Under the pieces are notes generated by a model, which saw only the letters and a list, made by a program, of their open reading frames with translations, was not told the DNA's origin and did not search any database. A stretch of DNA of 64,000 nt, taken from positions 640,001 through 704,000 of the forward strand of contig CAXXMD010000003.1 of the NCBI GenBank assembly GCA_963675755.2, read 5' to 3'. Source of the stretch: a bacterium. GTDB taxonomy: Bacteria > Zhuqueibacterota > Zhuqueibacteria > Residuimicrobiales > Krinioviventaceae. Position 1 is the stretch's first letter. Each line of letters begins with the position of its first letter. Of the stretch, positions 4,385 to 57,652 are shown one piece after another. The position numbers were made by a program, and so were the translations under genes.

Positions 4385-5401
4385 ATGCAAAACAAAAGCA
4401 CAATTAAAGATATTGCAAAACAACTTGGGGTTTCAACCTCACTTGTATCATTTGTTCTCAATGGTAAAAGTAAAGAAAAAAGAATTAGCGATGAAATGAC
4501 AGCCAAAGTCTTAAAAGTTGCTAAAAAAATGAATTACACTCCAAATTATCTTGCAAAAAGTTTAAGACATGGCAAGTCAAGAACTTTAGGACTCATAGTA
4601 GCTGACATATCAAATCCATTTTTTGCAAACCTGACCCGACATATCGAAATTGAAGCATTTAAATATAACTATCATGTTATTTTGGGCAACTCGGATGAGA
4701 ATTTATCAAAATTTTCCAACCAATTAAAAGTTTTAAAAAATGGCCAGGTCGATGGATTTATTATTACGCCGCCTCATGGAAGTGAAAAGGAAATAATTGA
4801 ATTACAAGAACAAAACATACCTTTTGTTATTATAGACAGAATATTTAACATACCTAATACACATTCGGTAATGATTGATAATCATAAAGCAAGTTATAAA
4901 GCCACAGAACGCCTGTTAGCTAATAATAGAAAAAATATTGCCCTTATTAATATAATCCCAGAATTGATTCATATGAAGCAACGAGAAGATGGTTTTCTTG
5001 ATGCTTTAAAAGACAATGGAATTCCTATAAACCACTCTATTATCAAACATCTTGATTTCAGCCATCAAAAAGATGTTTTAATGGAAGCGATCAAAGATGT
5101 TATTCAAAAACAAGCCGATGCAATTCTATTTACCACCAATAAACTCGGGCTTATGGGTGTAGAATGTCTGAAAGAATTGAATGTAGATATTTCCAACAAA
5201 ATGTCAGTTATCAGTTATGATGATCCTATAGCATTCAAGGTATCATATACACCAATCAGCGCAATTGTACAGCCCATTGAGCAAATGAGTAAAGATGCGG
5301 TTCGAATATTAATGAATACAATTGAAAACAAGTACAATGGTGATATAATAGAAAATATTGAACTGGATGTTGATTTTATTTTCAGGGCATCATGTAAATA
5401 A
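4385..5401 (+). CDS. LacI-family transcriptional regulator
   Basis: TIKDIAKQLGVSTSLVSFVLNG HTH, YTPNYLAKSL hinge, ADISNPFF sugar-binding domain. Confidence 0.97.
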   Translation: MQNKSTIKDIAKQLGVSTSLVSFVLNGKSKEKRISDEMTAKVLKVAKKMNYTPNYLAKSLRHGKSRTLGLIVADISNPFFANLTRHIEIEAFKYNYHVILGNSDENLSKFSNQLKVLKNGQVDGFIITPPHGSEKEIIELQEQNIPFVIIDRIFNIPNTHSVMIDNHKASYKATERLLANNRKNIALINIIPELIHMKQREDGFLDALKDNGIPINHSIIKHLDFSHQKDVLMEAIKDVIQKQADAILFTTNKLGLMGVECLKELNVDISNKMSVISYDDPIAFKVSYTPISAIVQPIEQMSKDAVRILMNTIENKYNGDIIENIELDVDFIFRASCK

Positions 5402-5664: not shown

Positions 5665-8481
5665 ATGGTAATATTGAAAAAAAATTATTTATTATTTATC
5701 TTGATAATTCTTTTGGGGGGCTGTTCAAAAGATTTTTCCCCTGATAAAAACAAAAAATATTTTGTGGGTTTTTCTCAATGCGTAAGTAATGATCTATGGC
5801 GTCAGTCCATGAATTATGAGATAAAGCTTGAAGCATCATTACATCCTGAAATTGAACTTTTAATTCTAGATGGCCAATCTAACAATCAAAAACAAATCAA
5901 TGACATTACTTATTTGATTGATCAGCAAGTTGATTTGTTAATTGTTTCCCCAAATGAAGCTGAGCCTCTAACGCCTATTGTGGAAAAAGCTTACAAAAGT
6001 GGAATTCCGGTAATCTTGCTGGACCGGAAAATTAACAGCGATTTATACAATACCTATATTGGCGCAGATAATTATGCAATTGGTTTTGAAGCCGGTTTAT
6101 ATGCAGTAAATCAATTAAAAAATGGCGGCAAGATATACGAAATTTGTGGATTGGCCGGTTCTTCACCCAGTTATGATAGACATGCAGGTTTTGCAGATGC
6201 TTTAAAATACAATGAAAACATTGAACTTTTGAAAAGTCAATATCACGATTGGGTAATAAAAGACACTCTTCAATTTCAGGAACTTTTATTCAATGAATTA
6301 AAAAAACACCCAAATATAAACATGATATATGGTCATAATGATGGATTGGCTGCTGGAGCCTTTATAGCGCTGAATAAAATGAACATGGCGCAAAAGATAA
6401 AATTTATTGGTATTGATGCCTTGCCCGGAGAAGGTGGTGGCCTTCAAATGGTATTGAATAAAGTCCTAGATGCCTCTTTTCTTTATCCAACAGGTGGGGA
6501 TGTTGCAATTCAAACAGCATTTAAAATATTAATTGGAGATACTGTTGATAAAAATATAAGCCTGGAATCTGTTCTTGTTGATTCAACAAATGCAAGATTG
6601 TTGCAAATAAAATCAGATCAAATCCATAATATCCGATCAAAAATTGAAACTCAAAATCAAATCTTGAACAGGCTATTCATTCAATACAATTCGCAGCGAT
6701 ATTTTGTTTTTACACTTGTTACAGCAATTTTTTTGCTGGCGGCTTTTCTTTTTTTACTGTTCCGTTCTTTACAGATCAATAAAATGATGAATCGTAAATT
6801 AAATGAAAAAAATCTGGCAATTGAAGAACATTTAATTGAACTTGAAAAGCAGCGTGACGAGTTATATCAGATGCAAGAAACTGTAAAAAAAGCGAATGAA
6901 TTTAAAATTCAATTTTTCACAAACATCTCTCATGAATTCCGAACTCCTCTTACTCTTATTTTAGGGACACTGGATCAATTAAAAAAACTAAACATCAAAG
7001 ACAATTATATTACCAAACAGTTGAATATTTTAAACAAAAACGCTGAAAGATTATTAAAGCTCATTAACGAATTAATGAACTTTAGAAAAATAGAAGCTCA
7101 AAAAGTCTCTCTAAATATTTATGAGCATGATATTGTAAGTTTCTTAAAAGATATATTAATATTCTTTGAAGGCTCGGCAGAAACAAAAAATATTAAATTA
7201 AACTTTTTTGCTCAACATGAACAAATGAATGTTTTTATTGATGCTATAAAATTTGAAAAAGTTATTTTTAATCTTCTTTCAAACGCTTTTAAATTCACCC
7301 CAGACAATGGAGAGATTACTCTATGTGTTATATATAATGAATGCATTGAAGATAATATTAGATGCATCGAAATTAGTGTTAAAGATACTGGTATTGGTAT
7401 ACCTGAGAATGAACTTGAACTTATATTTGAGCAGTTTCATAATATTGACCAAAATGGATATTCTTCAATAACAAGTACAGGTATAGGATTAGCCTTTAGC
7501 AAGAGAATAGTGACACTGCATCATGGAAACATAAGTGTAAAAAGTGAGGTCAATAAAGGCAGCACATTTACCATTCAACTGCCTTCTAATGCTGCTGCAT
7601 ATAAAAACAATGAAATCATAAATGATATGGCGGCTTTTAATTCCTTTGAGCACCTTGTTTCTGAGGAATTAGATAATTTACCGGAGCAAACTGTCAATCA
7701 AATAAATGTTATTGAAGATAATGCAGAAGTATTACTCGTTGTTGAGGACAATAAAGATGTTGTCCAGATGTTGAAAGATAATTTTGTCAAAGATTTTGAG
7801 ATCATTACAGCATACAATGGCAAAGAGGGTCTCGCATTAGCAAAAAAATATAAACCCAATATTATTATTAGCGATATAATGATGCCCATAATGGATGGCA
7901 ATGAGATGACAAAGTTATTAAAATCTGATATTGATACAAGCCACATTCCTATAATTTTACTCTCTGCCAAAACTACTGAAGAAAATAAAATAGAAGGTCT
8001 TGAATGCGGTGCTGATTATTATATCACAAAGCCATTCAACTTTAAAATCCTTGAATTAAAATTAAAAAATATCATAAAAAACAGAGAGAAAATTAAAGAA
8101 CATTTTTCCAAAGATATTCTGTTCTTTAAAAATGAACCACGGATCAAAGATCTTGACAAAGCGTTTCTTCAAAAAGTAATTGCACAGGCGGAAATGCAAA
8201 TATTGGATTCAAATTTATCTGTTGAAAATTTGGGTAAAACATTTGGAATGAACCGGCTTACTTTTTATCGAAAAATCAAAACAATTACAGGTCTTGCTCC
8301 AAGTGAATTTATAAAAACCATTCAGCTGCACAAAGCATCTGATCTTTTGAAAAATTCAGACTTGACCATTTCTGAAATTGCTTTCAAAGTTGGTTTTGAA
8401 ACCCCTTCATATTTTACAAAATGTTTTAAAAATGTCTTTAAAGTAAAACCTTCAGAATACCAGAAAAATTTTAACAATTAA
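5665..8481 (+). CDS. Hybrid two-component system (periplasmic sugar-binding domain, His kinase, receiver, AraC HTH), BT1754-like architecture
   Basis: RbsB-like sensor (GFSQC..WR, GADNY, HNDG, GIDA), one TM, NISHEFRTPLTLI H-box, NLLSNAFKFT, DTGIGI, SDIMMP receiver, ISEIAFKVGFETPSYFTKCFK. Confidence 0.95.
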   Translation: MVILKKNYLLFILIILLGGCSKDFSPDKNKKYFVGFSQCVSNDLWRQSMNYEIKLEASLHPEIELLILDGQSNNQKQINDITYLIDQQVDLLIVSPNEAEPLTPIVEKAYKSGIPVILLDRKINSDLYNTYIGADNYAIGFEAGLYAVNQLKNGGKIYEICGLAGSSPSYDRHAGFADALKYNENIELLKSQYHDWVIKDTLQFQELLFNELKKHPNINMIYGHNDGLAAGAFIALNKMNMAQKIKFIGIDALPGEGGGLQMVLNKVLDASFLYPTGGDVAIQTAFKILIGDTVDKNISLESVLVDSTNARLLQIKSDQIHNIRSKIETQNQILNRLFIQYNSQRYFVFTLVTAIFLLAAFLFLLFRSLQINKMMNRKLNEKNLAIEEHLIELEKQRDELYQMQETVKKANEFKIQFFTNISHEFRTPLTLILGTLDQLKKLNIKDNYITKQLNILNKNAERLLKLINELMNFRKIEAQKVSLNIYEHDIVSFLKDILIFFEGSAETKNIKLNFFAQHEQMNVFIDAIKFEKVIFNLLSNAFKFTPDNGEITLCVIYNECIEDNIRCIEISVKDTGIGIPENELELIFEQFHNIDQNGYSSITSTGIGLAFSKRIVTLHHGNISVKSEVNKGSTFTIQLPSNAAAYKNNEIINDMAAFNSFEHLVSEELDNLPEQTVNQINVIEDNAEVLLVVEDNKDVVQMLKDNFVKDFEIITAYNGKEGLALAKKYKPNIIISDIMMPIMDGNEMTKLLKSDIDTSHIPIILLSAKTTEENKIEGLECGADYYITKPFNFKILELKLKNIIKNREKIKEHFSKDILFFKNEPRIKDLDKAFLQKVIAQAEMQILDSNLSVENLGKTFGMNRLTFYRKIKTITGLAPSEFIKTIQLHKASDLLKNSDLTISEIAFKVGFETPSYFTKCFKNVFKVKPSEYQKNFNN

Positions 8482-8913: not shown

Positions 8914-8929
8914 GCTAAAACGTTTTAGC
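8914..8929. promoter_or_regulatory. LacI-family operator
   Basis: Perfect 16-bp palindrome GCTAAAACGTTTTAGC with a central CG, between the HTCS gene and the TonB receptor. Confidence 0.8.
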
Positions 8930-9192: not shown

Positions 9193-11898
9193 ATGAAAAG
9201 ATTCACCATTGGTTTTCTCCTTCTTTTATGTCTGTCTGGAAATTTATTATCTCAGACAACCGGTAAAATTGCCGGATCCATTAAAGATGTTGAAACAGGG
9301 GAGCCTCTTGTAGGTGTAAACGTTATGGTCGATGGCACCTATTTAGGTGGAGCTTCAAATATAGAGGGAAACTACTTTATTTTGAATGTTCCTCCGGGGA
9401 AATACACTATCAAATTCATGTGTATTGGTTATGCAACAAAACTCATAACTGACGTTCAAGTATCTGTAAACCGCACTTTAACTTTATCAACGACAATGAG
9501 CCAGGAAGCTTTGGATCTTGGTGAAGAAATTATCGTTTCCGCAGACCGCGTTGCTATCAAAAAAGACCAGACGAGTTCAATTCGAAATGTATCATCAGAA
9601 GATATTAATGTTCTTCCTGTTGAAAGCACCGGAAGCGTTGTTGCTATGCAACCGGGTGTTGTTCAGGGCCACTTTCGTGGTGGTCGTAGTAATGAGACTA
9701 GCTACTTGATCGATGGTATGTCTGTCAATAATGGGCTTAACAGAGGGCAAATGATAGAGATTGATCCTGATGCGGTACAGGAAGTAGAAGTCATTACCGG
9801 TACGTTCAGCGCCAAATATGGACAGGCTATGAGCGGTATTGTCAATGCAGTAACAAAAGAGGGCGGTAAAGACTTTCATGGTAAAATTGAAGGGTATTTA
9901 GGAAACTATTTTACTACCCATGATGATGTATATATCGGCCTTGAGCCATCTCAAATGGACCGTAACGAAGATTATAAGGTAATGTTACACGGCCCTGTTT
10001 TTGGCGACAAGCTGACATTTTTCACAAGTGCCAGAGTTCAGGATAATGATGGCTATTTAAATGGAGTCAGACGGTTCAATGTAACGGACCAACCGGATTA
10101 TAGTTTGTACCAAGACAGTACCTCATATGATCCTGAAACCGGCGCATACCTTTATAACGAAAATACAGGTGACAATGAATATGTTCCTATGAGCTGGTCC
10201 GAATCCATAAATTTCAACGGCAAGCTGACATACAAAATGCAAAACTTGAAAATGTCATTAATGTATTTACGTAATCAGAGTGAAGGACAATCTTACAGCC
10301 ATTCCAGAAAATATAAACCCGATGGTCGTAGTAGAAGTCACAACAAAAGTCAGATGCTGACCTACCAGTTGAACCATATTTTGAGTCCGGAATTATTTTA
10401 TGAAGTCAAAGTATCATATTCAAAAGATATGGGGGGCAGTTATCTATATGAAGACCCACAGGATAGTCGCTACATTCATGACTCTTTTTCAACAAATTCA
10501 TCATATACAGGATTTGTCACAGGTGGTCAAGATAAAGGCTATTCCAAAACAACAAGTAAAAAAATGCTCGGTCGTTTTGACATAACCTGGCAGGCCAACT
10601 ATAATCATAATATTGAAGCGGGTTTTCAGGGTGAACAATTTGATTATGATTATTTAGGCGGTTCGATTTTAAATTATTATAGAAACACTTCAGCGTCAGA
10701 TTTCCTTTATGCACCAGAGTTGCCGTCTGATTCAACCGTATATACAGACAGCTACCAAAAGAAACCCTATCAATTTGCTGGTTGGATTTCAGACAAAATG
10801 GAATATAACAACATGGTTATTGATTTGGGTGTAAGAGGTGAATACTTTGATCCAAATACAACTTACCCTTCCAACTATAGAAATCCCAGTAACCTGCTTC
10901 AAAAAGAAGGCACAGAAGATTGGGTTAGTACATATCCAAAAGCAAAAGCTAAAATTAATATAGCCCCACGTTTAGGTTTATCTTATAAATTGGGTGAAAC
11001 AGCATTGCTGCGTTTTAGCTATGGCCACTTTTATCAATATCCCCCACATAGCACCATGTATCTCAACAGCTCTTATGTAATCTCACCTGGAGATTATGAG
11101 ACCACATTGGGTAATCCCAATGTTGACCCGGAGATGACTGTTAGTTATGAAATAGGTTTATGGCAGATGCTTAATGATTATATGGATCTTGAAGTCGCTC
11201 TTTGGTACAGAGATATTTATAACCTGTCCACAGTCAATATTGTTACCACCTATAATTCTGTTCGATATGGACTCTATGGCAATAAAGACTATGGAAACGC
11301 AAGAGGCCTCGAGCTGAAATACAATGCACATGTTGCAAACTTTTTTGCCGAAGTCAATTATACCCTACAATACACACGTGGTAATGCTGATAATCCTATC
11401 TTTACCTTTAGTCGTGCAGGTAGCAGCCAGGATCCTATTCCAACATTAATACCAATGAGTTGGGACCAGCGTCATACTGTCAATATGTCTATTGGATATA
11501 ACTTGAGCAAATGGGGTGTATCAGTAATGGGTTGGGCAGGATCAGGTTCTGCATACACATGGAGTCCAATCAGTGAAAACCCATTAAACCGAATTAATTT
11601 ATATCCAAATGGAGCAAGTAAACCTGCTCACTATAAATTTGATTTAAAAGCACATTATGACATTGCTACCATTATGGGAGCCAAATTTATTGCAACCTTA
11701 CGGGTATATAATCTTTTTGATCACTTGAACGAAAACAATGTAAACTCGAATACAGGACGCACCAACCAGGCGATTATCAAACCCAGCGACCTGTTAGGTT
11801 TTTATAGTGATTTTAGTACTTATGAAGAAAGTATTTACAGCCCCGCAAACTGGTCTGCGCCTCGATTAGTCAAATTGGGCCTTGGTATTTCGTTTTAA
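9193..11898 (+). CDS. TonB-dependent receptor with N-terminal carboxypeptidase-regulatory-like domain (not SusC-type)
   Basis: Signal peptide, TGKIAGSIKD..GEPL.G.NV, plug (HFRGGRSNE..YLIDG, GTFSAKYG..MSGIVN.VTKEG), barrel (APRLGLSY, FSYGHFYQ), C-terminal ISF. Confidence 0.95.
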   Translation: MKRFTIGFLLLLCLSGNLLSQTTGKIAGSIKDVETGEPLVGVNVMVDGTYLGGASNIEGNYFILNVPPGKYTIKFMCIGYATKLITDVQVSVNRTLTLSTTMSQEALDLGEEIIVSADRVAIKKDQTSSIRNVSSEDINVLPVESTGSVVAMQPGVVQGHFRGGRSNETSYLIDGMSVNNGLNRGQMIEIDPDAVQEVEVITGTFSAKYGQAMSGIVNAVTKEGGKDFHGKIEGYLGNYFTTHDDVYIGLEPSQMDRNEDYKVMLHGPVFGDKLTFFTSARVQDNDGYLNGVRRFNVTDQPDYSLYQDSTSYDPETGAYLYNENTGDNEYVPMSWSESINFNGKLTYKMQNLKMSLMYLRNQSEGQSYSHSRKYKPDGRSRSHNKSQMLTYQLNHILSPELFYEVKVSYSKDMGGSYLYEDPQDSRYIHDSFSTNSSYTGFVTGGQDKGYSKTTSKKMLGRFDITWQANYNHNIEAGFQGEQFDYDYLGGSILNYYRNTSASDFLYAPELPSDSTVYTDSYQKKPYQFAGWISDKMEYNNMVIDLGVRGEYFDPNTTYPSNYRNPSNLLQKEGTEDWVSTYPKAKAKINIAPRLGLSYKLGETALLRFSYGHFYQYPPHSTMYLNSSYVISPGDYETTLGNPNVDPEMTVSYEIGLWQMLNDYMDLEVALWYRDIYNLSTVNIVTTYNSVRYGLYGNKDYGNARGLELKYNAHVANFFAEVNYTLQYTRGNADNPIFTFSRAGSSQDPIPTLIPMSWDQRHTVNMSIGYNLSKWGVSVMGWAGSGSAYTWSPISENPLNRINLYPNGASKPAHYKFDLKAHYDIATIMGAKFIATLRVYNLFDHLNENNVNSNTGRTNQAIIKPSDLLGFYSDFSTYEESIYSPANWSAPRLVKLGLGISF

Positions 11899-11917
11899 GA
11901 ACTTTTGAATTAAAGGT

Positions 11918-14900
11918 GTGAATCTAATGAGAGGAAGAATTTCGAAAGGATTTTTAACTATGAGGATAAAACTTTTTATTCTTTGTTTTGGATTATTATT
12001 TCTTAGCATAACCGACCTCTATGCTCAGGGGAAAACTTATGACGGTCCTCAAGACAGCGCAGGTGATCCATATCTGGAGCGCGAAGGTGTAATGTCAGGT
12101 AACCGTGTTCAATTGAATTTTAAAAACAATACGGAATTGGGTGGTTATCCCGTTGCTACAACCGCGTGGTGGCCAAAAGGTGTTGGTGGAAACAAAATGC
12201 ATGACAATATGGGTCTGTTAATAAGCTCAGCTGTCTGCATTACCCAAGATTCAATTCCGGTCACTGATCCTGATGAAATCAAAGCACTGGAAGCTCAGGG
12301 TCTGATTGATACTCTATTTTATTGCCAAACCAATTATAGAGAAGAAATGGACCGTGACCCTACCGGTCAGGTAGAATGGGGTTTTCATCCGGTTCCTGGC
12401 TATATGAACAATGCCAGTGAAACTCCGGCATTAAGCAATGATCCGGACTCATGGCCAACACACGGCTGGCTTTATACAGGACGCCAAACGCATTGGATGG
12501 GCGAATGGGATGGCCGTTTTGGTCGTGGCCAAATTAAAGCAGATTTAGAAGCATATTTTGTTGCCAACGATGCTCAGGATCTCGAATACCTGGGAGATGA
12601 CGACAAAGTTAAATATTATCCACGCAAAGATGTTAAAATTGGTGATATTGATGGCAGTGTGACTGTGCAAAAAGGAGAGCCCTGGGGTGGTCTGGGAATC
12701 AGAGTAAAACAAAGAGGTTTTCAGTGGAATAATCCCATGGCCCAGGACTGTATCTTTTGGGAATATACTGTTGCAAATATTTCAGACTATGATCTACCCA
12801 ATATGGCATTTGGTTACTGGCTTGACAATAATATTGGTGGTGAAAACACGGGTGAAGATGGTAATTTCAATAAAGTTATGAACTTGTCATATTGTTGGGA
12901 CACTGATGGAGTTGGTTCAGGTGGATATAAAACCGGAACCGCGGGTTATGCTTATCTTGAAAGTCCTGGTATTTTTAATGACTTTATAGATAATGATCAA
13001 GATGGTTTGGTCGATGAAGAACGAGATAATGATGCCGGTATGTTTATCGGCAAGTATGACGGTATAACAAATTTAGATGATTTTCTGTCTTTTTATGGCA
13101 AAACAGAAGAAGACCTGGTAGAGCATTGGTCAGGTGACGAAGATCAGGATTGGTCAGATGGTGAAGATACCAATAATGACGGAATTTATCAGGCAGATGA
13201 ATATGCCGGTGACGATATAGGTCTCGACGGTGTTTCTCCCAGTGAATTAAATTATACCGGTCCCGATGCTGATGGTACTGAATGTAATCACAAACCGGAC
13301 ATTGGAGAAGGTTACGCGGAACCAAACTTTGGCTGGACGGATGTAACAGAAACAGACATGTTGGGTTTAACAACATTGTTATTTTACGAAGCGCCTATAC
13401 ATACAGCGCCTTATGTAAACTGGTTCAGAAATGATGAATCTGTATATAGAAACATGACCTGTGGAATTCTGGAAGCCGGTGCCACACACATTGACAACCT
13501 GTTCCAGCTCTTTTCTACTGCGATCTTTCCGCTTTATCGTGGTCAAACTGAATTTATCTCAATTTCAGAACTACATACTTATGATGACCTTGCAGGTTTG
13601 ACTTCTGCTGAACACTCTGCTCCGGCACTCTTTACATTAAAAAATGTAGTTCAGCTTATATATGAAAAAGACTATCGTTTTGCTCAACCACCAGAAATGC
13701 CCAAACTGACTGCTGTTGCCGGTGATGGTTTTGTTCAATTAATGTGGGATGACCGTTCAGACCGGTTGACAAAGGAATCCTTTCTCAATGGTGAAAATGA
13801 CTTTGAAGGCTATAAAGTGTATCGTTCCACAGATCCGGATATGCTTGATCCTATGGTAATAACAGATGGTTATGGATCTGCAGCTTTTTCAAAACCTATT
13901 TTTCAATGCGATCTTAAAAACGAGTATGAAGGTTTTGCCACTTGGGGATTTTTGAATGGAACAGCTTATTATCTGGGTGACAACTCTGGTATAGCGTATT
14001 CATTTAAAGACGAAACCGTTCAAAATGGACGTACCTATTATTATGCCCTGGTAGCTTACGACTATGGTATTGAACCTGACAAACTTAAAGGTACCTCCCT
14101 CATATCTCAGGATGAAAATGCCGGTATCTCACCTTCTGAAAACAATGCTATTATTAGAAAAGATGATTCTGAAAACATAGAATTCATCGGAGCAAATGTG
14201 GCAATTGTTACCCCCGGTTCTGATGCTGCGGGAGAGGAAGTGACGGTTGATTTTCAAGTTGATGATAATGGTTCTATTGGTGGTGGTAAAATTGTTCCCA
14301 AAGTTATTGATATCAATTCATTAAAAGATGACCACGTCTATAAAATAAAATTCTCTTATAATCAGATTGATTCTGCTTACAGATACCATGCAGGTTATGG
14401 ATATAAATACACTGCCAATGGCTTAAAAGTCTATGATGTAACCGAAGATAACAGACTAGTTCTTTCAGACCTTTTAGGAAGTGGCGGCCCTGCCAACATG
14501 ACTTCCATTATTGAAAAGGACGACTATTACCACCTGGCTTCTTCCGAGCTCATGTGGACGGATATTTTTGATGGAATACAACTGGGCGTAAAAATGGATG
14601 CTGCATTGTCAGAACTCGATGTGGCAAACACAGGATGGATGCCTGGTGAATCTCCCATGAACATCCGCTATATTGATAACCTGGCAATGGAATGCTATAG
14701 CTGGGATTATAACATTGTCTTTTCCGATCAACCCCTGCATAAAACACAAATTACTCAGAGATATGCGGCTTATCTGGACGATGAAAATGGAAACAGATTA
14801 AATAAAGATGAATTGCTGGTTGAAGAAGAGTTTAACTTTAGAATTGAATGCCTGGATTTTGCCGATACTACCGGAGCACCTCGTGTTTTAGATATGCTGG

Positions 14901-15502
14901 TCCAGGACATGAATGCTAACGGCCAGTTTGACATTTTAGAAGATCGTATTTTGGTTGGTCCCTATAATGCAAATAAATTATGGGATGGCGTTTTGTTTAT
15001 CATTGATTTCCAACGTTGCGATGACGAAAGTGACTTGCCCAAAGCAAACGACGTTTATGCCATTCGCCACTTGAAACCGTGGTACAAAACCGATTCATTA
15101 ACATTCACAGTTTCTGCCGAAAAATTGATCAATACGGAAAGTGCAAAATCATTAATGGATTCTATCCGCGTGGTTCCAAATCCTTATGTTGCTACAAACA
15201 TGATGGAACCCTCAGTGGTCAATAAATATCTGAACCAGCGTAGAAGATTATTGTTTACGAATCTACCTGCCCAATGTACAATCAAAATCTTTACTGTTAG
15301 TGGAATGCTTGTACGGGAATTAAATAGCCCGGGAGATTGCTTGACAACCTTTTCAGGCTTTGGTGACAATAATACCGGTACTCTTCACTGGGATATGCTA
15401 TCCTGGGAAGGATTGGAAATAGCTGCCGGTATGTATTTATATCATGTTAAAGATGATGAGACCGGTGAAGAAAAAGTCGGCAAATTTGGTGTCATTAAAT
15501 AA
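11918..15502 (+). CDS. Large secreted protein with Asp-rich Ca-binding-like loops, FN3-like domain and C-terminal T9SS-like sorting domain (start probably ATG 11960)
   Basis: Signal peptide MRIKLFILCF, DNDQDGLVDE/DTNNDG motifs, PP..PKL...WD..FEGYKVYRS...GRTYYYALVAYD, C-terminal IRVVPNPY..FTNLP..CTIKIFT..G.Y.YHV..KFGVIK. Confidence 0.85.
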   Translation: MNLMRGRISKGFLTMRIKLFILCFGLLFLSITDLYAQGKTYDGPQDSAGDPYLEREGVMSGNRVQLNFKNNTELGGYPVATTAWWPKGVGGNKMHDNMGLLISSAVCITQDSIPVTDPDEIKALEAQGLIDTLFYCQTNYREEMDRDPTGQVEWGFHPVPGYMNNASETPALSNDPDSWPTHGWLYTGRQTHWMGEWDGRFGRGQIKADLEAYFVANDAQDLEYLGDDDKVKYYPRKDVKIGDIDGSVTVQKGEPWGGLGIRVKQRGFQWNNPMAQDCIFWEYTVANISDYDLPNMAFGYWLDNNIGGENTGEDGNFNKVMNLSYCWDTDGVGSGGYKTGTAGYAYLESPGIFNDFIDNDQDGLVDEERDNDAGMFIGKYDGITNLDDFLSFYGKTEEDLVEHWSGDEDQDWSDGEDTNNDGIYQADEYAGDDIGLDGVSPSELNYTGPDADGTECNHKPDIGEGYAEPNFGWTDVTETDMLGLTTLLFYEAPIHTAPYVNWFRNDESVYRNMTCGILEAGATHIDNLFQLFSTAIFPLYRGQTEFISISELHTYDDLAGLTSAEHSAPALFTLKNVVQLIYEKDYRFAQPPEMPKLTAVAGDGFVQLMWDDRSDRLTKESFLNGENDFEGYKVYRSTDPDMLDPMVITDGYGSAAFSKPIFQCDLKNEYEGFATWGFLNGTAYYLGDNSGIAYSFKDETVQNGRTYYYALVAYDYGIEPDKLKGTSLISQDENAGISPSENNAIIRKDDSENIEFIGANVAIVTPGSDAAGEEVTVDFQVDDNGSIGGGKIVPKVIDINSLKDDHVYKIKFSYNQIDSAYRYHAGYGYKYTANGLKVYDVTEDNRLVLSDLLGSGGPANMTSIIEKDDYYHLASSELMWTDIFDGIQLGVKMDAALSELDVANTGWMPGESPMNIRYIDNLAMECYSWDYNIVFSDQPLHKTQITQRYAAYLDDENGNRLNKDELLVEEEFNFRIECLDFADTTGAPRVLDMLVQDMNANGQFDILEDRILVGPYNANKLWDGVLFIIDFQRCDDESDLPKANDVYAIRHLKPWYKTDSLTFTVSAEKLINTESAKSLMDSIRVVPNPYVATNMMEPSVVNKYLNQRRRLLFTNLPAQCTIKIFTVSGMLVRELNSPGDCLTTFSGFGDNNTGTLHWDMLSWEGLEIAAGMYLYHVKDDETGEEKVGKFGVIK

Positions 15503-15539
15503 GTTCACGAAAATTTTTAAAGATTGAAAGGATAAAGTA

Positions 15540-16601
15540 ATGTTAAGAGGACACCTTAGAGTTTCAATTTTGACATTTTTTTTACTGATAAGCATTCAGG
15601 GACTAGCTCAGCAACCCTATAGGGTTGGAACAACATCCGCTAGTTTTTTGGAAATTGGAATAGGCGCTGCAGGTAATGCCATGGGAGATGCATATGTTGC
15701 ATCAACCGGAGATATGTCATCCATTTATTGGAATCCTGCAGGTCTTGCTTTTTTGAAATCTAACGAAGCACTGTTTATGTATCAACCCTGGGTGGTTGAC
15801 ATTAATTCAATGTTTTCCGGATTCGCTATGCCATTACAGGGGTTAGGCACCATTGCAGTAGGCATATTTAGCCTCAATTATGGCGATATCGATGTAACAA
15901 CACTTGAATACCAGAATGGTACTGGTGAAAAATATACAGCAATGGATTACAACTTTAGTTTATCATATGCCCAAAGTATTGCTCAATGGTTTTCCTTTGG
16001 TGCCACATTTAAATACATCAGCTCAAAAATCTGGCATACCAACAGTCATGCAATTGCGGCTGATTTGGGTGTACTTGTTCAAACCCCGTTCTTCTCACCT
16101 AACAGCAAGAATGAAGATGGTCTTCGAATTGGTATGAGCATATCAAATTATGGTTCAAAGATGGAATACGATGGTGATGATTTGCTGATTCCGGTAGACA
16201 TTGACGTAGATGCTAACGGTAATTATCAAAATCTTCAGGGGAAATATAAAATGTCTGAATGGGAATTACCACTCATTTTCCGGGTTGGTATTGCCGTTAC
16301 TCCTATCTCTTTGGGAAACCAAAAATTAGTCCTGGAGGCTGACGCCCTGCATCCAAACAACATGGGTGAATCCATTAATGCCGGTGCAGAATATAAATTT
16401 TTTGCCCCGGGATATGGAGATTTTTCTCTACGGGCAGGTTACAAAGCCTTGTTTTTAGAAAAATCTAATTATGGGCCCACTTTTGGAGCTGGTTTAAATT
16501 ATCATCTTTCTCCAAATCTGTCATTCAATATTGATTATGCCTATCGTACTCTGGGAGTATTGGGTAATATTCATTGCAGCAGCTTTGGTGTACAATTTTA
16601 A
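15540..16601 (+). CDS. PorV/PorQ (UPF0164)-like outer-membrane beta-barrel
   Basis: FLEIGIGA...AMGDAY, SIYWNPAGLA, LPLIFRVG, LRAGY, DYAY, C-terminal F. Confidence 0.9.
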   Translation: MLRGHLRVSILTFFLLISIQGLAQQPYRVGTTSASFLEIGIGAAGNAMGDAYVASTGDMSSIYWNPAGLAFLKSNEALFMYQPWVVDINSMFSGFAMPLQGLGTIAVGIFSLNYGDIDVTTLEYQNGTGEKYTAMDYNFSLSYAQSIAQWFSFGATFKYISSKIWHTNSHAIAADLGVLVQTPFFSPNSKNEDGLRIGMSISNYGSKMEYDGDDLLIPVDIDVDANGNYQNLQGKYKMSEWELPLIFRVGIAVTPISLGNQKLVLEADALHPNNMGESINAGAEYKFFAPGYGDFSLRAGYKALFLEKSNYGPTFGAGLNYHLSPNLSFNIDYAYRTLGVLGNIHCSSFGVQF

Positions 16602-16661
16602 TTACCATCCAATAATTGATAACTCTTTGAACAAGAGTTTATAATAGATATAGGAGGCACA

Positions 16662-17477
16662 ATGAAATATAGGATTTTAATTCTGTTTGTGGCGATAGTT
16701 AGCTTTGGAATTGTTGCGTGTGATTTTAATAGCCATACTGAGCCAGAATTGAATTACGACAAGGCAAAAATATTAGGAGATGAAATATATATAAATCAAT
16801 CGGACGAAAGACCGCAGGGAATTGATTCGCTGTATATTAATGAAGGCGATACATTGCTGCTTAAACTCACTACCCAGCTATTGGAAGATCCTGAATATCA
16901 GTGGATAATTGAAGATAACAGTGTTTTCGAAATTCTACCCATTGCAGATGATCCAACTTCGTTTTATGCAGTTGCCAAAACTGATAGCGGAGCAACAACC
17001 AGTTTTACACTAAAAGACAACATTAATGAAGCAAAAAAACAAATGCAAGTTATTGTGACTAAATTCTGGGCGGATCCCGATATATATATATTGCTGGGCC
17101 GTTTTGGCGGTCACTGTTATTACATCTCTCGTTCAAAAATCACCTGGCCTGAAGCTAATTACAACTGTGAACTTGCCGGCGGATATTTGCCTTGCATTGC
17201 AACCCAGGAAGAGCACTCTTTTCTTTTCAATGCAATGATGGATCTTGATATGGGTGAAACATGGATCGGTATTCGTTATGAACCCACTGGTGAAGGTGGT
17301 TTTACACTCCTGAATTGGATTAATGGAGATGAACTAACCTATGAATATTTTAAAAGCAAAGACGGTGTTGATGGTTTTAATGCAAGATACTTTTTCGCCA
17401 TGTTAACTACCGAAGGCGGTCTTTGGTACAACTATGCTGTTGCTGACCGGTGTAACTACTTTTTGGAACTTGAATAA
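16662..17477 (+). CDS. Lipoprotein with C-terminal C-type lectin-like domain
   Basis: Lipobox IVAC. FGGHCYY...TWPEA..NC...GGYL.CI....E..FL....WIG...W...C..YFLE matches the CTLD pattern. Confidence 0.85.
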   Translation: MKYRILILFVAIVSFGIVACDFNSHTEPELNYDKAKILGDEIYINQSDERPQGIDSLYINEGDTLLLKLTTQLLEDPEYQWIIEDNSVFEILPIADDPTSFYAVAKTDSGATTSFTLKDNINEAKKQMQVIVTKFWADPDIYILLGRFGGHCYYISRSKITWPEANYNCELAGGYLPCIATQEEHSFLFNAMMDLDMGETWIGIRYEPTGEGGFTLLNWINGDELTYEYFKSKDGVDGFNARYFFAMLTTEGGLWYNYAVADRCNYFLELE

Positions 17478-17507
17478 AAGCACCGCTTCTCAAACAAAAT
17501 AAACTCG

Positions 17508-17543
17508 TTAAATGTCCGATCTTTATTTAGATCGGACATTTAA
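17508..17543 (+). terminator. Strong hairpin (terminator or mRNA stabiliser)
   Basis: TTAAATGTCCGATCT-ttattt-AGATCGGACATTTAA. Confidence 0.75.
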
Positions 17544-17581
17544 TTCAATCATTACAATTATTAAAATGTTGGTTAATTACC

Positions 17582-19075
17582 ATGAAGTATAAAATTTTAA
17601 TATTGATATTATTTCTTTTTTCTTGCAGTACAAAAACACCCAAAGAGCCTCAGGAAAAAATCCTTGTAGACATTGACGGCAAGGCTACTATTAGTGTTAA
17701 CGAATTTTTACGCCGTGCCGAATATGTTCCAAGACCAGACTATTGTAAAGCAAATACATATATCCATAAAAAAATCATATTAAACTCACTCATTGCAGAA
17801 AAGTTACTTGCACTTGAAGCCGGGAATGATTCCCCCTTGTTGGAAAATATAGAGTTTCAAAACTATATCAAAGGTCATAAAGAACAGGCAATGCGTCAAT
17901 ATATGCATCATGTTGAAGCTACAGATAAAGTTGTTTTAGACAATGCTGAATTAACAAATGCATATAAATTTGCAGGTCGTGAATATGATGTTGCTTATTT
18001 CACAATCGTTGATAGTTCCGTTGCAGAAAAAGCACATGATGAACTGGTACAGAATCCTCAACAATTTGATGAATTCTATTTTCAAATGACGGGTCAAAAA
18101 AATGTACCAAATCGTAAAGTTCAATGGAACAGTGATGAGCACGTAAAGCTGCATCAAACTTTATTCTCACAAGACATTACCAAGGGACAAGTGCTGTCAC
18201 CAATCAAATTTGATGAAAATGGTTATCTTTTTATCAAAATACTTGGCTGGACAGATACTAAAGTCATTACAGAAAAACAGCAGCGAGAAAGACTTGATCA
18301 GATAACCGAAAAATTAACAGAGATTAAAGCTAGTGCCATTTGGGAAAATCGTGTTTCTGAAATTATGCGTGGTAAACGTATGGATTTTAACAAAGACGTT
18401 TTCAATAAAATGGCAGAAATTTTATATGCTTCTTATTTCCCAACATCAGAAGAAAAAAAGGATATTGCTATTAACCAATTATGGCAACAGGAAGATGAAC
18501 AGAACCCAAAATCATTACAAGATATGTCCAATGAGGTGTTTTTACAAGAACCTTTTTTCACTATTGATGGTAACGTGTGGACAGTTGATGATTTTCGGAA
18601 TGCCCTCATGTCTCACCCACTTGTGTTCCGAACCAATAAAGTTAATCCCAATGAATTCCCCCAACAGTTACGTCTCGCTATTGCAGACCTTGTTCGGGAT
18701 CATTTTATAACCCAACAAGCTTATAAAGCAGGTTACGATAAAGTCAATATTGTTGAAAGAAATGTCAACATGTGGAAGGATACTTTTTTTGCATTAAATG
18801 AAAAACACCAATTTTTAGATTCTGTACATGAAAACAGAGATTTTGCAAAAAATTATCATGAAATACTAGATGAAACTTTGAATCCATACATCAACAAGCT
18901 ACAGGAAAAATATTACAAAAAAGTCAAACTGGATTTCAAGACATTTGAAGACATCTCTCTTTCTTCTATAGATTTATTGGTTATGCACCAGGACCAACCA
19001 TATAAATATGTTGTACCATTATTTCCAATAATCACTAACGACCATTTGATAGAATATGTAGATAAAATTCATTAA
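17582..19075 (+). CDS. Lipoprotein, SurA/PrsA-like chaperone (degenerate PPIase-type)
   Basis: Lipobox LFSC. ISVNEFLRR, LNSLIAEKLLALEA, GQVLSPIK..GY.FIK, and a second TIDG.VWTVDDF repeat. Confidence 0.65.
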   Translation: MKYKILILILFLFSCSTKTPKEPQEKILVDIDGKATISVNEFLRRAEYVPRPDYCKANTYIHKKIILNSLIAEKLLALEAGNDSPLLENIEFQNYIKGHKEQAMRQYMHHVEATDKVVLDNAELTNAYKFAGREYDVAYFTIVDSSVAEKAHDELVQNPQQFDEFYFQMTGQKNVPNRKVQWNSDEHVKLHQTLFSQDITKGQVLSPIKFDENGYLFIKILGWTDTKVITEKQQRERLDQITEKLTEIKASAIWENRVSEIMRGKRMDFNKDVFNKMAEILYASYFPTSEEKKDIAINQLWQQEDEQNPKSLQDMSNEVFLQEPFFTIDGNVWTVDDFRNALMSHPLVFRTNKVNPNEFPQQLRLAIADLVRDHFITQQAYKAGYDKVNIVERNVNMWKDTFFALNEKHQFLDSVHENRDFAKNYHEILDETLNPYINKLQEKYYKKVKLDFKTFEDISLSSIDLLVMHQDQPYKYVVPLFPIITNDHLIEYVDKIH

Positions 19076-19080
19076 GACAC

Positions 19081-19139
19081 AAAGGAGGTGATACAAAAAG
19101 CTACTCATTTTTACGTAATAATATTTAAAGGAGGTGATA
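19081..19139 (+). promoter_or_regulatory. Two extended Shine-Dalgarno-like motifs without start codons
   Basis: AAAGGAGGTGATA at 19081-19093 and 19127-19139, 155-200 nt upstream of ATG 19294. Confidence 0.55.
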
Positions 19140-19293
19140 AGAAAAACTGTTGATCAATTCGGAATATTCAAAACCAGACTTGATCAAGAAAAAGTATCTT
19201 TTGTTTTGAAATGTGATAAAATCGAATAATTCGAAAGAAACGCAGATCAATTCATAATTACTACTCATTTGCTACGTTAGGAGAAATGAAAAC

Positions 19294-22179
19294 ATGTTTA
19301 AAACAAAACTACTAGTACTTTGCGGACTTGTCTTTACATTCTTTATGTTTGGATCATTGTCTGCTAAAGAATCAAAAACTACTACAAATACTGTCGATGC
19401 TGTCAAAGTATGGGCAAATGAAATGATGGATCCTGATCCGGAAAAACTCAATACCAACAATGGCAATCCGGTTCGTTACGGAACCAAAGCTGAACCCGGC
19501 TCTGAAAACATTGTTCGCTGGTGCGTTCAAAATGCAGAAGACTGGATGTTAATCAATTCTGATGATCCTGCAAGTGGTCCTTATTCCATGACCATTAGTA
19601 TTGGTGGAGAACGCATTCCGTCTGACAATTGCTGGCTTGATTTACGTCGGGAAGATGCTCCTGTAGCTGGTTATAACGTTCCTTTTGATGCCACTGGTAC
19701 CGACCGGGTTACTTTTTGGATCAAAGCTGAACCTGGTACAGCTCCATTGTGGTTCCTGGTACAGGGTTTTCAGCCTGACTATGATGGCACCACCTACTCT
19801 GGCGACAAACAGGAAACTGTTAATGCGTTTATCGATGGTGAAACCATTATCGTTAAAGACGCAGACGGTGGTTTAAAAGTATTGCGTGACAATCACTTTA
19901 ACGGTGAATGGCAATTTGTTAGTCTGCCATGGGAATTCTTGACAATGTCAGATTCAGCTGCTGTTGCTGAATTGCTACCCTGGAGTTTGGCATGGGAGGG
20001 TTCTTCTGCAGATTCTCGCGATGATGTTGCTTTTAGAGTTTCTGAAGTTCGTACAGTTAAATGGTTCACCAAACCTGCAAGTGAATTCCTCAAAGATCAA
20101 TATTGGGAATCTGATGACAACCTGTGGGGTCCTTATGGTATCAATCCTGAACGGGCTACATGGGAAATTGATGAAATTATGTTTGACACTTTTAATACTG
20201 ATGAAATTGATGACTGCTTGACACCCGAAGTTGATGTTTGGGCAAATGAAATGATGGATCCTGATCCGGAAAAACTCAATACCAACAATGGCAATCCGGT
20301 TCGTTACGGAACCAAAGCAGAACCCGGCTCTGAAAATATTGTTCGCTGGTGCGTTCAAAATGCAGAAGACTGGATGTTAATCAATTCTGATGATCCTGCA
20401 AGTGGTCCTTATTCCATGACCATTAGTATTGGTGGAGAACGCATTCCGTCTGACAATTGCTGGTTGGATTTACGCCGCGAAGATGCTCCTGTAGCTGGTT
20501 ACAATGTTCCGTTTGATGCCAGCAATACTGACAGAGTTACTTTTTGGATCAAAGCTGAACCTGGTACAGCTCCATTGTGGTTCCTGGTACAGGGCTTTCA
20601 GCCTGACTATGATGGTACCACCTACTCTGGCGACAAACAGGAAACTGTTAATGCGTTTATCGATGGTGAAACCGTTATCGTTAAAGATGGAAACGGTGGT
20701 TTAAAAGTATTGCGTGACAATCACTTTAACGGCGAATGGCAATTTGTTAGTCTGCCATGGGAATTCCTGACAATGTCAGATTCAGCTGCTGTTGCTGAAT
20801 TGCTGCCTTGGAGTTTGGCATGGGAAGGCTCTTCTGCAGATTCTCGCGATGATGTTGCTTTTAGAGTTTCTGAAGTACGTACTGTTAAATGGTTCACCAA
20901 ACCTGCAAGTGAATTCCTCAAAGATCAATATTGGGAATCTGCTGACAACCTGTGGGGTCCTTATGGTATTAATCCTGAACGGGCTACATGGGAACTTGAT
21001 GAAATTAAATTCCAAAAATCTAATTCTTGTGAATCATATCCTGCAGAAATTGCGGTATGGGACAATGCAATGATGGATCCTGATCCGGAAAAACTCAATA
21101 CCAACAATGGCAACCCGGTTCGTTACGGAACCAAAGCTGAACCCGGCTGTGAAACTATAGTTCGCTGGTGTGTTCAAAATGCTGAAGACTGGATGCTAAT
21201 CAACTCTGACAATCCTGCAAGTGGTCCTTATTCTATGACTATTAGTATTGGTGGAGAACGCATTCCGTCTGACAATTGCTGGTTGGATTTACGTCGCGAA
21301 GATGCTCCTGTAGCTGGTTACAATGTTCCTTTTGACGCAAGTGAAACAGATCGTGTAAGTTTCTGGATCAAAGCTGAACCTGGTACAGCTCCAGTTTGGT
21401 TCCTGGTACAGGGTTTTCAGCCAGACTATGATGGCACCACTTATTCTGGTGACAAACAGGAAACTGTTAATGCATTTATCGATGGTGAAACCGTTATTGA
21501 TATCAATGAATTAGGTGAATTGGCAGTTGTTAGAGACAGACATTTTACAGGTGAATGGCAATTTGTTAGTTTGCCATGGAAATTCCTGACAATGTCAGAT
21601 TCTGCTGCTGTTGATGCCATACTGCCTTGGAGTTTGGCATGGGAAGGTTCTTCTGCGGATAGTCGCGATGATGTTGCATTCAGAACTTCCGAAGTACGTA
21701 CCGTTAAATGGTTCACCAAACCTGCAAGTGAATTCCTCAAAGATCAATATTGGGAATCTGCCGACAACCTGTGGGGTCCTTATGGTATTAATCCTGAACG
21801 GGCTACATGGGAAATTGATGCAGTGTATTTCACATCCGGTTTTAAAGCACGTGAAGGTTTCACAACTGGTATTGAAGATTTGGATAAAGAAAGAATTCCT
21901 GCTTCTTATACTCTTTACAATGCATATCCAAATCCATTTAACCCAAGCACCACAATTCGCTACACAATTCCGGTATCAAACATGGTAACCGTTGATATTT
22001 ATAATGTTATGGGTCAAAAAATCCGTACGCTGGTTAATGAATATAAATCAGCAGGTACCTATGATATGGTATGGGATGGTCGTAACGATGCTGGTAACAA
22101 CATTTCCTCCGGAATTTATTTTGTCAAAATGCAAGCAAGCCATTTTAATTCAGTACAAAAGGTTACTTTGATTAAATAA
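19294..22179 (+). CDS. Secreted protein with three tandem ~275-aa putative carbohydrate-binding domains and a T9SS/FlgD-type C-terminal domain
   Basis: Signal peptide. Three near-identical units (FWIK...GEWQFVSLPW..L...IDEI, reminiscent of CBM11/CIA30 sandwiches). C-terminal AYPNPFNPSTTI...SGIYF...KVTLIK. Confidence 0.88.
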   Translation: MFKTKLLVLCGLVFTFFMFGSLSAKESKTTTNTVDAVKVWANEMMDPDPEKLNTNNGNPVRYGTKAEPGSENIVRWCVQNAEDWMLINSDDPASGPYSMTISIGGERIPSDNCWLDLRREDAPVAGYNVPFDATGTDRVTFWIKAEPGTAPLWFLVQGFQPDYDGTTYSGDKQETVNAFIDGETIIVKDADGGLKVLRDNHFNGEWQFVSLPWEFLTMSDSAAVAELLPWSLAWEGSSADSRDDVAFRVSEVRTVKWFTKPASEFLKDQYWESDDNLWGPYGINPERATWEIDEIMFDTFNTDEIDDCLTPEVDVWANEMMDPDPEKLNTNNGNPVRYGTKAEPGSENIVRWCVQNAEDWMLINSDDPASGPYSMTISIGGERIPSDNCWLDLRREDAPVAGYNVPFDASNTDRVTFWIKAEPGTAPLWFLVQGFQPDYDGTTYSGDKQETVNAFIDGETVIVKDGNGGLKVLRDNHFNGEWQFVSLPWEFLTMSDSAAVAELLPWSLAWEGSSADSRDDVAFRVSEVRTVKWFTKPASEFLKDQYWESADNLWGPYGINPERATWELDEIKFQKSNSCESYPAEIAVWDNAMMDPDPEKLNTNNGNPVRYGTKAEPGCETIVRWCVQNAEDWMLINSDNPASGPYSMTISIGGERIPSDNCWLDLRREDAPVAGYNVPFDASETDRVSFWIKAEPGTAPVWFLVQGFQPDYDGTTYSGDKQETVNAFIDGETVIDINELGELAVVRDRHFTGEWQFVSLPWKFLTMSDSAAVDAILPWSLAWEGSSADSRDDVAFRTSEVRTVKWFTKPASEFLKDQYWESADNLWGPYGINPERATWEIDAVYFTSGFKAREGFTTGIEDLDKERIPASYTLYNAYPNPFNPSTTIRYTIPVSNMVTVDIYNVMGQKIRTLVNEYKSAGTYDMVWDGRNDAGNNISSGIYFVKMQASHFNSVQKVTLIK
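19408..21830 (+). repeat. Intragenic tandem triplication (periods 828 and 819 bp)
   Basis: Units start at 19408, 20236 and 21055 and share long identical DNA stretches (e.g. ATGATGGATCCTGATCCGGAAAAACTCAATACCAACAATGGC). Confidence 0.97.
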
Positions 22180-22205: not shown

Positions 22206-22237
22206 TAAACGAGGAGCAAAATATTGCTCCTCGTTTA
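22206..22237 (+). terminator. Intrinsic terminator hairpin
   Basis: TAAACGAGGAGCAA-aata-TTGCTCCTCGTTTA after the stop at 22179. Confidence 0.8.
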
Positions 22238-23732: not shown

Positions 23733-23771
23733 AATGAACACAGTCAATTTTAAACTTGGAGGTATTGAGTT

Positions 23772-26375: not shown

Positions 26376-26395
26376 TATCTAAGAGTTTGGTATAT

Positions 26396-26445
26396 TTCAA
26401 GATCAGGACACGTTGAAAAATACACTTTTAAATCCTGATCTTGAA
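26396..26445 (+). terminator. Inverted repeat after the TPR gene
   Basis: TTCAAGATCAGGA...TCCTGATCTTGAA with a 24-nt loop. Confidence 0.5.
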
Positions 26446-26647
26446 TAAACTTTATAAATTAAATTTCTGCTCCGGTTGATATTAAGAATTATTTTATTGA
26501 CAAATAAAAACGTGTTTGAACGCGAGAAACAGAACCAAACTCCCCTGTTAATACAAAGCTTGATTCAAAAATAATAAATCCTGACATTTTAAAATTAATA
26601 TATTTAACAGCATACTATTTCGGTATGGATTAATAAAAAGGGAAATT

Positions 26648-27940: not shown

Positions 27941-28027
27941 CTTTATAAAATAATAAATTCTTTATATAACAGACACAAAAAAGTAACTGTTAAATTCAAT
28001 AATTCAAGACAAAGGAGCCTTATCTAC

Positions 28028-48448: not shown

Positions 48449-48450
48449 AT

Positions 48451-49506: not shown

Positions 49507-49507
49507 A

Positions 49508-54225: not shown

Positions 54226-54267
54226 GGTTATCCTCGTCAATCTATATTTATCACTCTATATTCTCTA

Positions 54268-55899: not shown

Positions 55900-55912
55900 G
55901 AACTCCTTTATA

Positions 55913-56290: not shown

Positions 56291-56300
56291 TTGTTATCCC

Positions 56301-56627: not shown

Positions 56628-56651
56628 AGTATCACTCCTTGTCAAAAACTC

Positions 56652-57518
<867 letters not shown>

Positions 57519-57540
57519 TTAATTGCTTACCCGGTTACAG

Positions 57541-57555
57541 GCAACGGTTGTGCCA
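57541..57555 (-). promoter_or_regulatory. Sigma54 promoter of the nif operon
   Basis: Minus strand TGGCAC-AACCG-TTGC, a perfect -24/-12 consensus 65 nt upstream of nifH. Confidence 0.92.
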
Positions 57556-57652
57556 CAGATAAACACTTGAAAGTCAACTCAGGTAACCATATGTTTTTAA
57601 GATACTTACACAGACAAAGTCAGCCATTAATAAAACAGCTCAAAATGAAAAG

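Follow-up and report, generated by a model that had tools for sequence, protein, structure and literature searches.

A conserved cassette of TonB-dependent receptor, sorting-domain protein and PorV-family barrel as a candidate SusCD-independent glycan uptake module

The SusC/SusD core of Bacteroidota polysaccharide utilization loci (PULs) pairs a TonB-dependent receptor with a surface partner that is encoded next and inherited along with it, surrounded by carbohydrate-active enzymes (CAZymes), sugar transporters and regulators, and its clades follow gene context. PUL prediction in PULDB is seeded on susCD pairs, according to passages of its description (PMC5753385). An excerpt of PMC10576277 states that CAZyme clusters in Ignavibacteriales seldom contain susCD, which raises the question of how oligosaccharides enter the cells of such lineages; a single SusCDE operon is present in M. 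roseus, by an excerpt of PMC3534657. Here we describe three adjacent genes in a bacterial genome of the Zhuqueibacterota (assembly GCA_963675755.2, contig CAXXMD010000003.1, positions 640,001 to 704,000; this 64,000-nucleotide stretch is the window) that encode a TonB-dependent receptor, a large exported protein of 1194 residues and an outer-membrane barrel. The trio is SusCD-like by position, PorQ-PorZ-like by its anchor, and a member of neither system. On balance, we lean towards the proposal that it serves uptake across the outer membrane in a PUL independent of SusCD, in which the barrel would hold the large protein as the receptor's capture partner.

The closest described barrel systems belong to type IX secretion. 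PorQ-PorZ and PorV-PorU, in the T9SS (type IX secretion system) attachment complex, each combine a PorV-family barrel with a protein bearing a long C-terminal domain (CTD) of a kind other than type A or type B. Relevant passages of PMC10947112 describe the CTDs of PorU and PorZ as uncleaved, that of PorZ as neither type A nor B, and PorQ as the anchor of PorZ, and part of PMC10202324 proposes that cognate PorV-like barrels shield CTDs from cleavage. For type B cargo, excerpts of PMC9143113 and PMC12618676 describe a cargo gene directly followed by the gene for its own PorP/SprF barrel. A look-alike of our trio occurs in the xylan PUL of Rhodothermus marinus, where Rmar_1070-1072 appear in an excerpt of PMC6987092 as a TonB receptor, a sorting-domain hypothetical protein and a further hypothetical protein, with a LacI gene and xylanases ahead of them. 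The order of gene types is the same, a likeness drawn from annotation alone; unlike our locus, the R. marinus PUL also contains a true SusCD pair, and the excerpt proposes no barrel or lid role for these proteins.

The trio opens a run of six confirmed open reading frames (ORFs), all on the + strand between 9193 and 22179 and separated by intergenic gaps of 19, 37, 60, 104 and 218 bp. Core gene 1 (9193..11898, + strand) encodes a TonB-dependent receptor in which Pfam and NCBIfam identify Plug and TonB barrel domains and an N-terminal CarboxypepD_reg extension. Its score against the SusC model TIGR04056 is 67.3 bits, below the cut-off of 368, with the match confined to residues 25-226, and a Pfam scan of 29 proteins of the window turns up no SusD. 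A preliminary description of the stretch, made from the sequence by a model without database searches, had called the receptor non-SusC, the run free of SusD and the gene directly after that of the 1194-residue protein a PorV-like barrel, and all three statements hold. That barrel (core gene 3, 15540..16601, + strand) passes the PorV/PorQ family cut-off of NF033709 (207.6 bits against 90) and lies under both orthologue cut-offs (PorV, 99 of 250 bits; PorQ, 91.6 of 220 bits), which makes it a family member and an orthologue of neither. Its family profile matches PorV 6h3i (E 1.4e-25), and no PorP/SprF match is listed for it at E ≤ 0.1. Compared with the SusC/SusD core, the trio therefore differs in having a receptor below the SusC cut-off, a beta-rich partner of 1.1-1.2 kaa with neither a lipobox nor a SusD match, and a third core gene for a PorV-family barrel.

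The nature of the anchor is suggested by the end of the large protein. NCBIfam, hidden Markov models (HMMs) and structure agree on a PorZ-like CTD at residues 1083-1194 (15164..15499, + strand) of the form VVPNPY...GKF.VIK, distinct from type A, with VVPNPY at residue 1085, FTNLP at 1113 and KFGVIK at 1189. The protein has no match to the type A models TIGR04183 and PF18962, and the type B model TIGR04131 is not listed for it at E ≤ 0.1. Its only NCBIfam matches are weak C-terminal ones, to PorZ (E 5e-7) and PorU, the PorZ model giving 28.5 bits against a cut-off of 260 and covering the CTD only. The CTD also finds its closest structural match in that of PorZ (5m11; Z 13.9, rmsd 2.0, 94 residues aligned, 28% identity). 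HMMs built from related loci for two classes, the large-protein family and type A, score the CTD at 140.6 and 15.3, respectively, and three type A proteins of the window show the reverse preference (95.5-108.7 bits on the type A HMM). Across related loci, [VA]VPNPY occurs in 72 of 73 family CTDs, the 107 other CTDs mostly have Y/FPNPFN, and the HMM scores divide the two sets cleanly. Family CTDs are also longer (median 104 residues, against 85 for type A) and share a mean identity of 52%. The VVPNPY CTD is a separate class, private to the large-protein family and closest to that of PorZ; the HMM separation bears out the earlier suggestion of an atypical sorting domain distinct from the YPNPFNP type.

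Because this CTD is nearest to PorZ's and cognate-barrel rules have been published, the barrel is best read, by analogy, as a PorQ-like private anchor for the large protein. The analogy has its limits: unlike in PorQ-PorZ, the barrel does not reach the orthologue cut-off of PorQ or of PorV, the body of this particular cargo is unrelated to PorZ, and the trio is multi-copy and tied to a receptor and glycan genes. With type B cargo the trio shares the gene order, cargo then own barrel, and differs in that its barrel is of the PorV/PorQ family and its CTD lacks a TIGR04131 match. Of the precedents invoked in the preliminary description, the cognate adjacent barrel stands and the PorP/SprF type does not, PorQ-PorZ being closer.

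The three genes recur together well beyond this genome. Scoring of 8000 candidates gave 1578 relatives of the large protein, and cluster representatives at 50% identity number 3023 at E ≤ 0.001 and 345 at E ≤ 1e-30. A scan of species genomes gave at least 546 confirmed relatives among 599 stretches, and our locus counts refer to the best 79, all titled metagenome-assembled genomes (MAGs) and a biased subset. The nearest named homologues, 63-66% identical, are from KSB1, which probably places the host in or close to that group, and Caldithrix abyssi has a homologue that is 51% identical. Within three ORFs of the large gene, a receptor homologue is found in 68 of the 79 loci, a barrel homologue in 69 and both in 62; the three genes are consecutive as receptor-large-barrel in 54/79 and as receptor-barrel-large in 3/79. 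Of the 49 loci with 3 kb or more of sequence upstream and 1.5 kb or more downstream, which span several phyla of the FCB group, 47 have both partners beside the large gene, and the triad is thus conserved, so that the preliminary description is not refuted on this count. The two exceptions are L015, in which three large genes precede a barrel and the contig is cut upstream, and L019, which has a receptor and a barrel four ORFs away. The tandem paralogues of L015 (1-16770) share one barrel and are followed by HlyD/MacB-type genes, not sugar genes. Two tandem triads occur in one genome in L069 and in L075, the second of L069 being cut by the contig end.

Inheritance follows the same pattern. When the three proteins of 52 complete triads are compared by their distance matrices, r lies between 0.88 and 0.94, whereas permutations reach at most 0.17, and FastTree trees, in which a possible long-branch join of L072 was flagged, share 27/31, 19/36 and 19/31 well-supported splits where chance gives at most 3. 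The closest tree match of the large protein is the receptor (27/31). The receptor, the large protein and the barrel are a real conserved cassette inherited together. Labelled by gene context (50 rows, with L067, which carries both marks, counted as CBM9), the large-protein tree needs 4 changes, where 2 is the minimum and shuffled labels average 22.9; labelled by phylum, with 15 rows unlabelled, it needs 18, where 7 is the minimum and shuffled labels average 23.2. A single branch sets apart the 11 loci with ABC transporters, among which six phylum labels occur. Because the tree follows gene context far better than phylum, the pattern fits substrate-specific paralogues that may move as a cassette, although linkage alone would look alike and MAG titles can err.

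Sugar-degradation genes are the usual setting of the cassette. Among the 399 non-core ORFs of at least 250 aa in its neighbourhoods, of which 266 were scanned with Pfam and 133 were covered via a cluster representative only, there is no SusD/RagB match at E ≤ 1e-5 or 1e-12, the latter a threshold that a very divergent SusD could escape. In the 62 loci where two or more further genes are present, labelled by Pfam and in some cases through cluster membership, a glycoside hydrolase (GH) or carbohydrate esterase (CE) gene is present in 47, an SSS, ABC or LacI gene in 35, and one or the other in 53. GH16 occurs in 21 of these loci, GH3 in 11, GH5 in 10, GH2 in 8, GH9 in 6 and GH130 in 5, and many of the neighbouring enzymes bear type A CTDs. 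The PUL setting without SusD that had been claimed for this one locus thus extends to its relatives. A full-text literature search, mostly of open-access papers and with supplements outside its scope, found no published description of the triad, and a term search of the C. abyssi genome paper (PMC5317091) found no mention of PorV, SusD or type IX. The idea that this is an undescribed alternative PUL architecture accordingly stands within the literature searched, and the three-gene PUL core is real, widespread and apparently undescribed. As a separate observation, L002 (2550-5222) and 21 other loci encode a conserved protein, roughly 850 aa long, that combines a CBM9-like domain with a type A CTD and whose first 600 residues match no Pfam family; in most such loci its gene is the one immediately upstream of the receptor gene, and an SSS transporter often precedes it.

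What the large protein might do at the surface depends on its body. Core gene 2 (11918..15502, + strand) encodes an exported protein of no described family, as judged from Pfam (no family at E ≤ 0.01), a homologue search and a structure model; a PDB sequence search with the single protein returned nothing. Translation probably starts at Met4 or Met15, not at the GTG. The model of the mature protein (pLDDT 90.5, pTM 0.83) is nearly all beta, with nine scattered helices of 4-15 residues each, and a Foldseek search with the whole model places PorZ in the top row, the rest being generic beta-sandwich rows with TM-scores of at most 0.15. By structure comparison, residues 49-588 (12062..13681, + strand) form a galactose-mutarotase-like beta-supersandwich, which we call the head. 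It matches 9ju0 (VIA Z 20.2, rmsd 3.0, 258 aligned), residues 36-274 of glucoamylase 1lf6 (Z 17.8), the GH174 fucanase 9k1g (Z 14.2, 6% identity) and aldose epimerases (Z 13.0-13.9). Within the head, the alignment shows a conserved Asp-rich insertion with DxDxDG-type motifs (residues 350-481; 12965..13360, + strand), which on these motifs probably binds calcium. Profile, strand pattern and conservation define an Fn3-like domain with insertions at residues 589-766 (13682..14215, + strand), weakly matched to 3mpc (E 0.034) and 50% identical on average. A variable all-beta region of 26% mean identity (residues 767-1082; 14216..15163, + strand), possibly a stalk or specificity part, links it to the CTD; the best fold match of this region, to flagellar junction proteins (VIA Z 8.1), is at background level, which does not of itself imply a new fold. 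The best conserved parts are the Asp-rich insertion, the Fn3-like domain and the CTD (50-52% mean identity).

The head fold is common among carbohydrate-active proteins, and the model here shows it without an attached catalytic barrel. In GH15/GH65/GH94-type enzymes an (alpha/alpha)6 catalytic barrel follows the supersandwich, and in aldose 1-epimerase a catalytic His/His/Glu is conserved. The head shares the fold of the N-terminal supersandwich of the former, of aldose 1-epimerase and of GH174 (Z 13-20); unlike them, it is only 7-12% identical, carries a 130-residue acidic insertion, has no helical catalytic barrel behind it in the model, and has no His kept in at least 80% of the 52 alignment rows. 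E211, R266, Q269 and W270 are invariant and D218 is nearly so. Because the helical barrel and a conserved His are absent, and with no Pfam family assigned, the large protein is not a known catalytic CAZyme, and the preliminary description is not refuted on this count either. Among long homologues, six of the 25 scanned (P0166, P0171, P0181, P0192, P0198 and P0206) carry a Reg_prop beta-propeller ahead of the C-terminus.

Based on these comparisons, we propose the following mechanism. The observed starting point is a set of three genes that pass on together as a single cassette, with glycosidases, sugar transporters and LacI regulators around them. The receptor would quite probably import oligosaccharides released by the neighbouring enzymes. 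The large protein would leave the cell through Sec and the type IX translocon, whereupon the adjacent barrel would collect its special CTD, so that the protein escapes cleavage and remains bound at the surface; we hold this step, modelled on PorQ-PorZ, to be quite probable, and surface anchoring by the barrel is a good inference by that analogy. A SurA/PrsA-like lipoprotein encoded downstream would probably help to fold parts of the trio. Finally, the calcium-stabilised supersandwich/Fn3 head could sit over or beside the receptor and capture glycan, which we favour only slightly. SusD's job would then be done with an unrelated fold and with a protein anchor in place of a lipid anchor. This lid step is the weakest of the model, and the contact between head and receptor is a proposal.

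Several observations weigh against this proposal. The window's own gene run contains no confident CAZyme; 9 of the 62 loci have neither a GH/CE nor an SSS/ABC/LacI gene, and the figure of 53/62 is a raw count that takes no account of the background CAZyme density of the host genomes. Several large-protein genes share a barrel or receptor in L013, L015 and L059. The co-evolution of the CTD with its adjacent barrel that the preliminary description suggested as a check is not specific: the CTD-barrel correlation (r 0.82) does not exceed that of the rest of the protein with the barrel (0.87) or of the CTD with the receptor (0.84), and for this reason the agreement of the trees is evidence of linkage only. 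Mutual information over the 52 paired triads gave a clade-split signal only, even within proteins, and was discarded. The head domain occurs in ordinary type A cargo as well (8 of 246 proteins) and is therefore able to work without the VVPNPY CTD and barrel anchor. The lid step is further weakened by the fact that no fusion of the large protein was seen, there being none above 2090 aa among 4248 candidates, itself weak evidence.

Some of these points would suit a large protein that is held by the barrel and acts on its own at the surface as a glycan binder, an adhesin or a scaffold, comparable to the surface glycan-binding protein SGBP-B or to SusE/F, with the receptor left uncapped. Copy number and order vary between loci, the head also turns up in type A cargo that bears PKD, dockerin or FG-GAP modules, and the 52 triads gave no residue-level co-evolution. 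We consider this arrangement unlikely, as the large gene nearly always adjoins that of the receptor, whose tree also matches its own best, which suggests an obligate pair, whereas accessory genes vary by locus. The head could instead act at the surface as an enzyme of a new kind (such as an endo-glycanase, a lyase or an epimerase), with its active site in the beta-supersandwich, and feed the receptor. The invariant polar residues would make sense in an active site, and a similar fold forms the body of the GH174 fucanase and the aldose epimerases. The same residues are kept, however, beside unlike glycosidase sets (GH16/GH3/GH5 versus GH130/ABC), and epimerases need a conserved His, which the head lacks; its top fold matches, moreover, are N-terminal domains of GH15/GH94-type enzymes, which are non-catalytic. 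An enzymatic head thus appears improbable.

A reversed direction of traffic is somewhat less probable still. The trio would then export or display the neighbouring CTD-bearing CAZymes, either through an outward receptor like Oar of Myxococcus or in a PorZ-like attachment role. Reg_prop is the domain type of PorZ, and its presence in some long homologues, a weak Pfam match to PF25183 and the many type A CTDs nearby would be in keeping with this. A TonB-dependent transporter can export protein, as described for Oar and PopC in an excerpt of PMC11658791. Against it, the cassette follows substrate context rather than host phylum, is multi-copy in single genomes (L069, L075), and in 35 of 62 loci stands alongside inner-membrane sugar transporters or LacI. 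Least probable of all, to the point of being very doubtful, is a barrel that acts only as a transient shuttle, with the large protein cleaved, released or attached to lipopolysaccharide like type A cargo. PorV itself is a shuttle, according to a passage of PMC12618676, and the barrel scores slightly nearer PorV than PorQ; yet the CTD is conserved like the head, is longer than type A CTDs, and is nearest to the two uncleaved CTDs, those of PorZ and PorU.

The SusCD-independent uptake module that we favour would have several consequences. The triad is a concrete, widespread candidate for oligosaccharide uptake where susCD is scarce. If the proposal is correct, it also extends the rule of one barrel for one retained CTD, as in PorQ-PorZ and PorP/SprF, to nutrient uptake, and adds a CTD class. 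Taken to its full extent, the trio could be a second, independently built, lidded glycan TonB transporter, with receptor, T9SS-exported lid and private PorV-family anchor in one complex, an idea that we advance tentatively, at a little under even chances. Such a complex, with its own CTD class, might replace SusCD in KSB1, Calditrichota, Fidelibacterota (Marinimicrobia), Ignavibacteriota and Rhodothermota, which we regard as equally tentative; the triad would in that case serve as a genomic marker for PULs missed by susCD-seeded predictors. Because C. abyssi has the 51% identical homologue and R. marinus the look-alike locus, the triad is open to experiment.

Upstream of the trio, the description of the gene run as sugar-regulated receives support, at the level of domain content, from two further genes outside the run. 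Pfam assigns LacI and Peripla_BP domains to a LacI-family regulator (4385..5401, + strand), and a hybrid two-component sensor-regulator (5665..8481, + strand), in which Pfam recognises a periplasmic sugar-binding domain, has as its top PDB match 2x7x ('SENSOR PROTEIN', E 8.9e-77), which we take to be the fructose sensor BT1754. A perfect 16-bp palindrome at 8914..8929, 264 bp upstream of the receptor, is a candidate LacI-type operator; it is the sole intergenic one among three perfect 16-mers in the window, and its shape is, we presume, of the LacI type. Such a site occurs in 2 of 14 related loci with LacI and in none of 31 without, numbers that are very small. A promoter and terminator scan gave counts close to shuffled values. 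A long perfect hairpin at 17508-17543, between the lectin-like and SurA-like genes, scores as a minus-strand terminator and may split or tune the transcript.

The three genes that complete the run appear to be accessory. The first (16662..17477, + strand) encodes a lipoprotein with a C-type-lectin-like domain, a local extra with its lipobox at Cys20; Lectin_C matches above cut-off (E 9e-6), and 89 PDB sequences match at E ≤ 0.01, in line with a C-type-lectin-like fold. EPN or QPD together with WND are the calcium-sugar motifs of C-type lectins. Since all three are absent from this protein, it is lectin-like rather than a proven lectin, and of the C-type lectin lipoprotein proposed earlier the lipobox and fold remain and the calcium-sugar motifs do not. 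The second gene (17582..19075, + strand) is a recurrent accessory, which a direct search recovers in 18 of the 79 loci and clustering in 29. The SurA-like lipoprotein named in the preliminary description is recovered in its lipobox (Cys15) and in a family profile that matches PrsA/parvulin foldases (E 3.7e-16), the single protein having no Pfam match. The third (19294..22179, + strand), also a local extra, encodes a type A T9SS cargo by its NCBIfam CTD, from a rare family (only 6 relatives among 2723 candidates). It contains three repeats of 259 aa each (19408-20184, 20236-21012 and 21055-21831); because these are 89-97% identical, they point to a recent triplication. The threefold structure that had been noted is therefore present, and for its "binding" label the one pointer is a weak Atlas lead to galactose-binding-like domains. 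The lectin-like and triple-repeat genes are found in none of the 79 related loci, and we accordingly drop lectins as parts of the machine.

A strong hairpin at 22206-22237 parts these genes from a downstream run on the + strand (22563-31159) that encodes a Rid/FkbO-like protein, a PD40-TPR protein, a GH-A TIM-barrel protein with a weak match to GH158 (E 4.5e-5) and a beta-propeller protein that partially matches beta-N-acetylgalactosaminidases (E 1.3e-7). The ORFs at 26648-27940 and 28028-31159 give weak GH-like matches only. Elsewhere in the window, all on the - strand, a second TonB receptor and a FecCD-type ABC transporter (46620-51772), probably for metal or cobalamin uptake, lie beside a nif-like cluster (52846-59369), which comprises a pair of nitrogenase component 1-type genes and a gene for a NifA-like activator of the GAF/sigma-54 kind. 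The far end (60846-63917) carries a chondroitinase B (PL6-like) gene together with a gene for a type A CTD protein.

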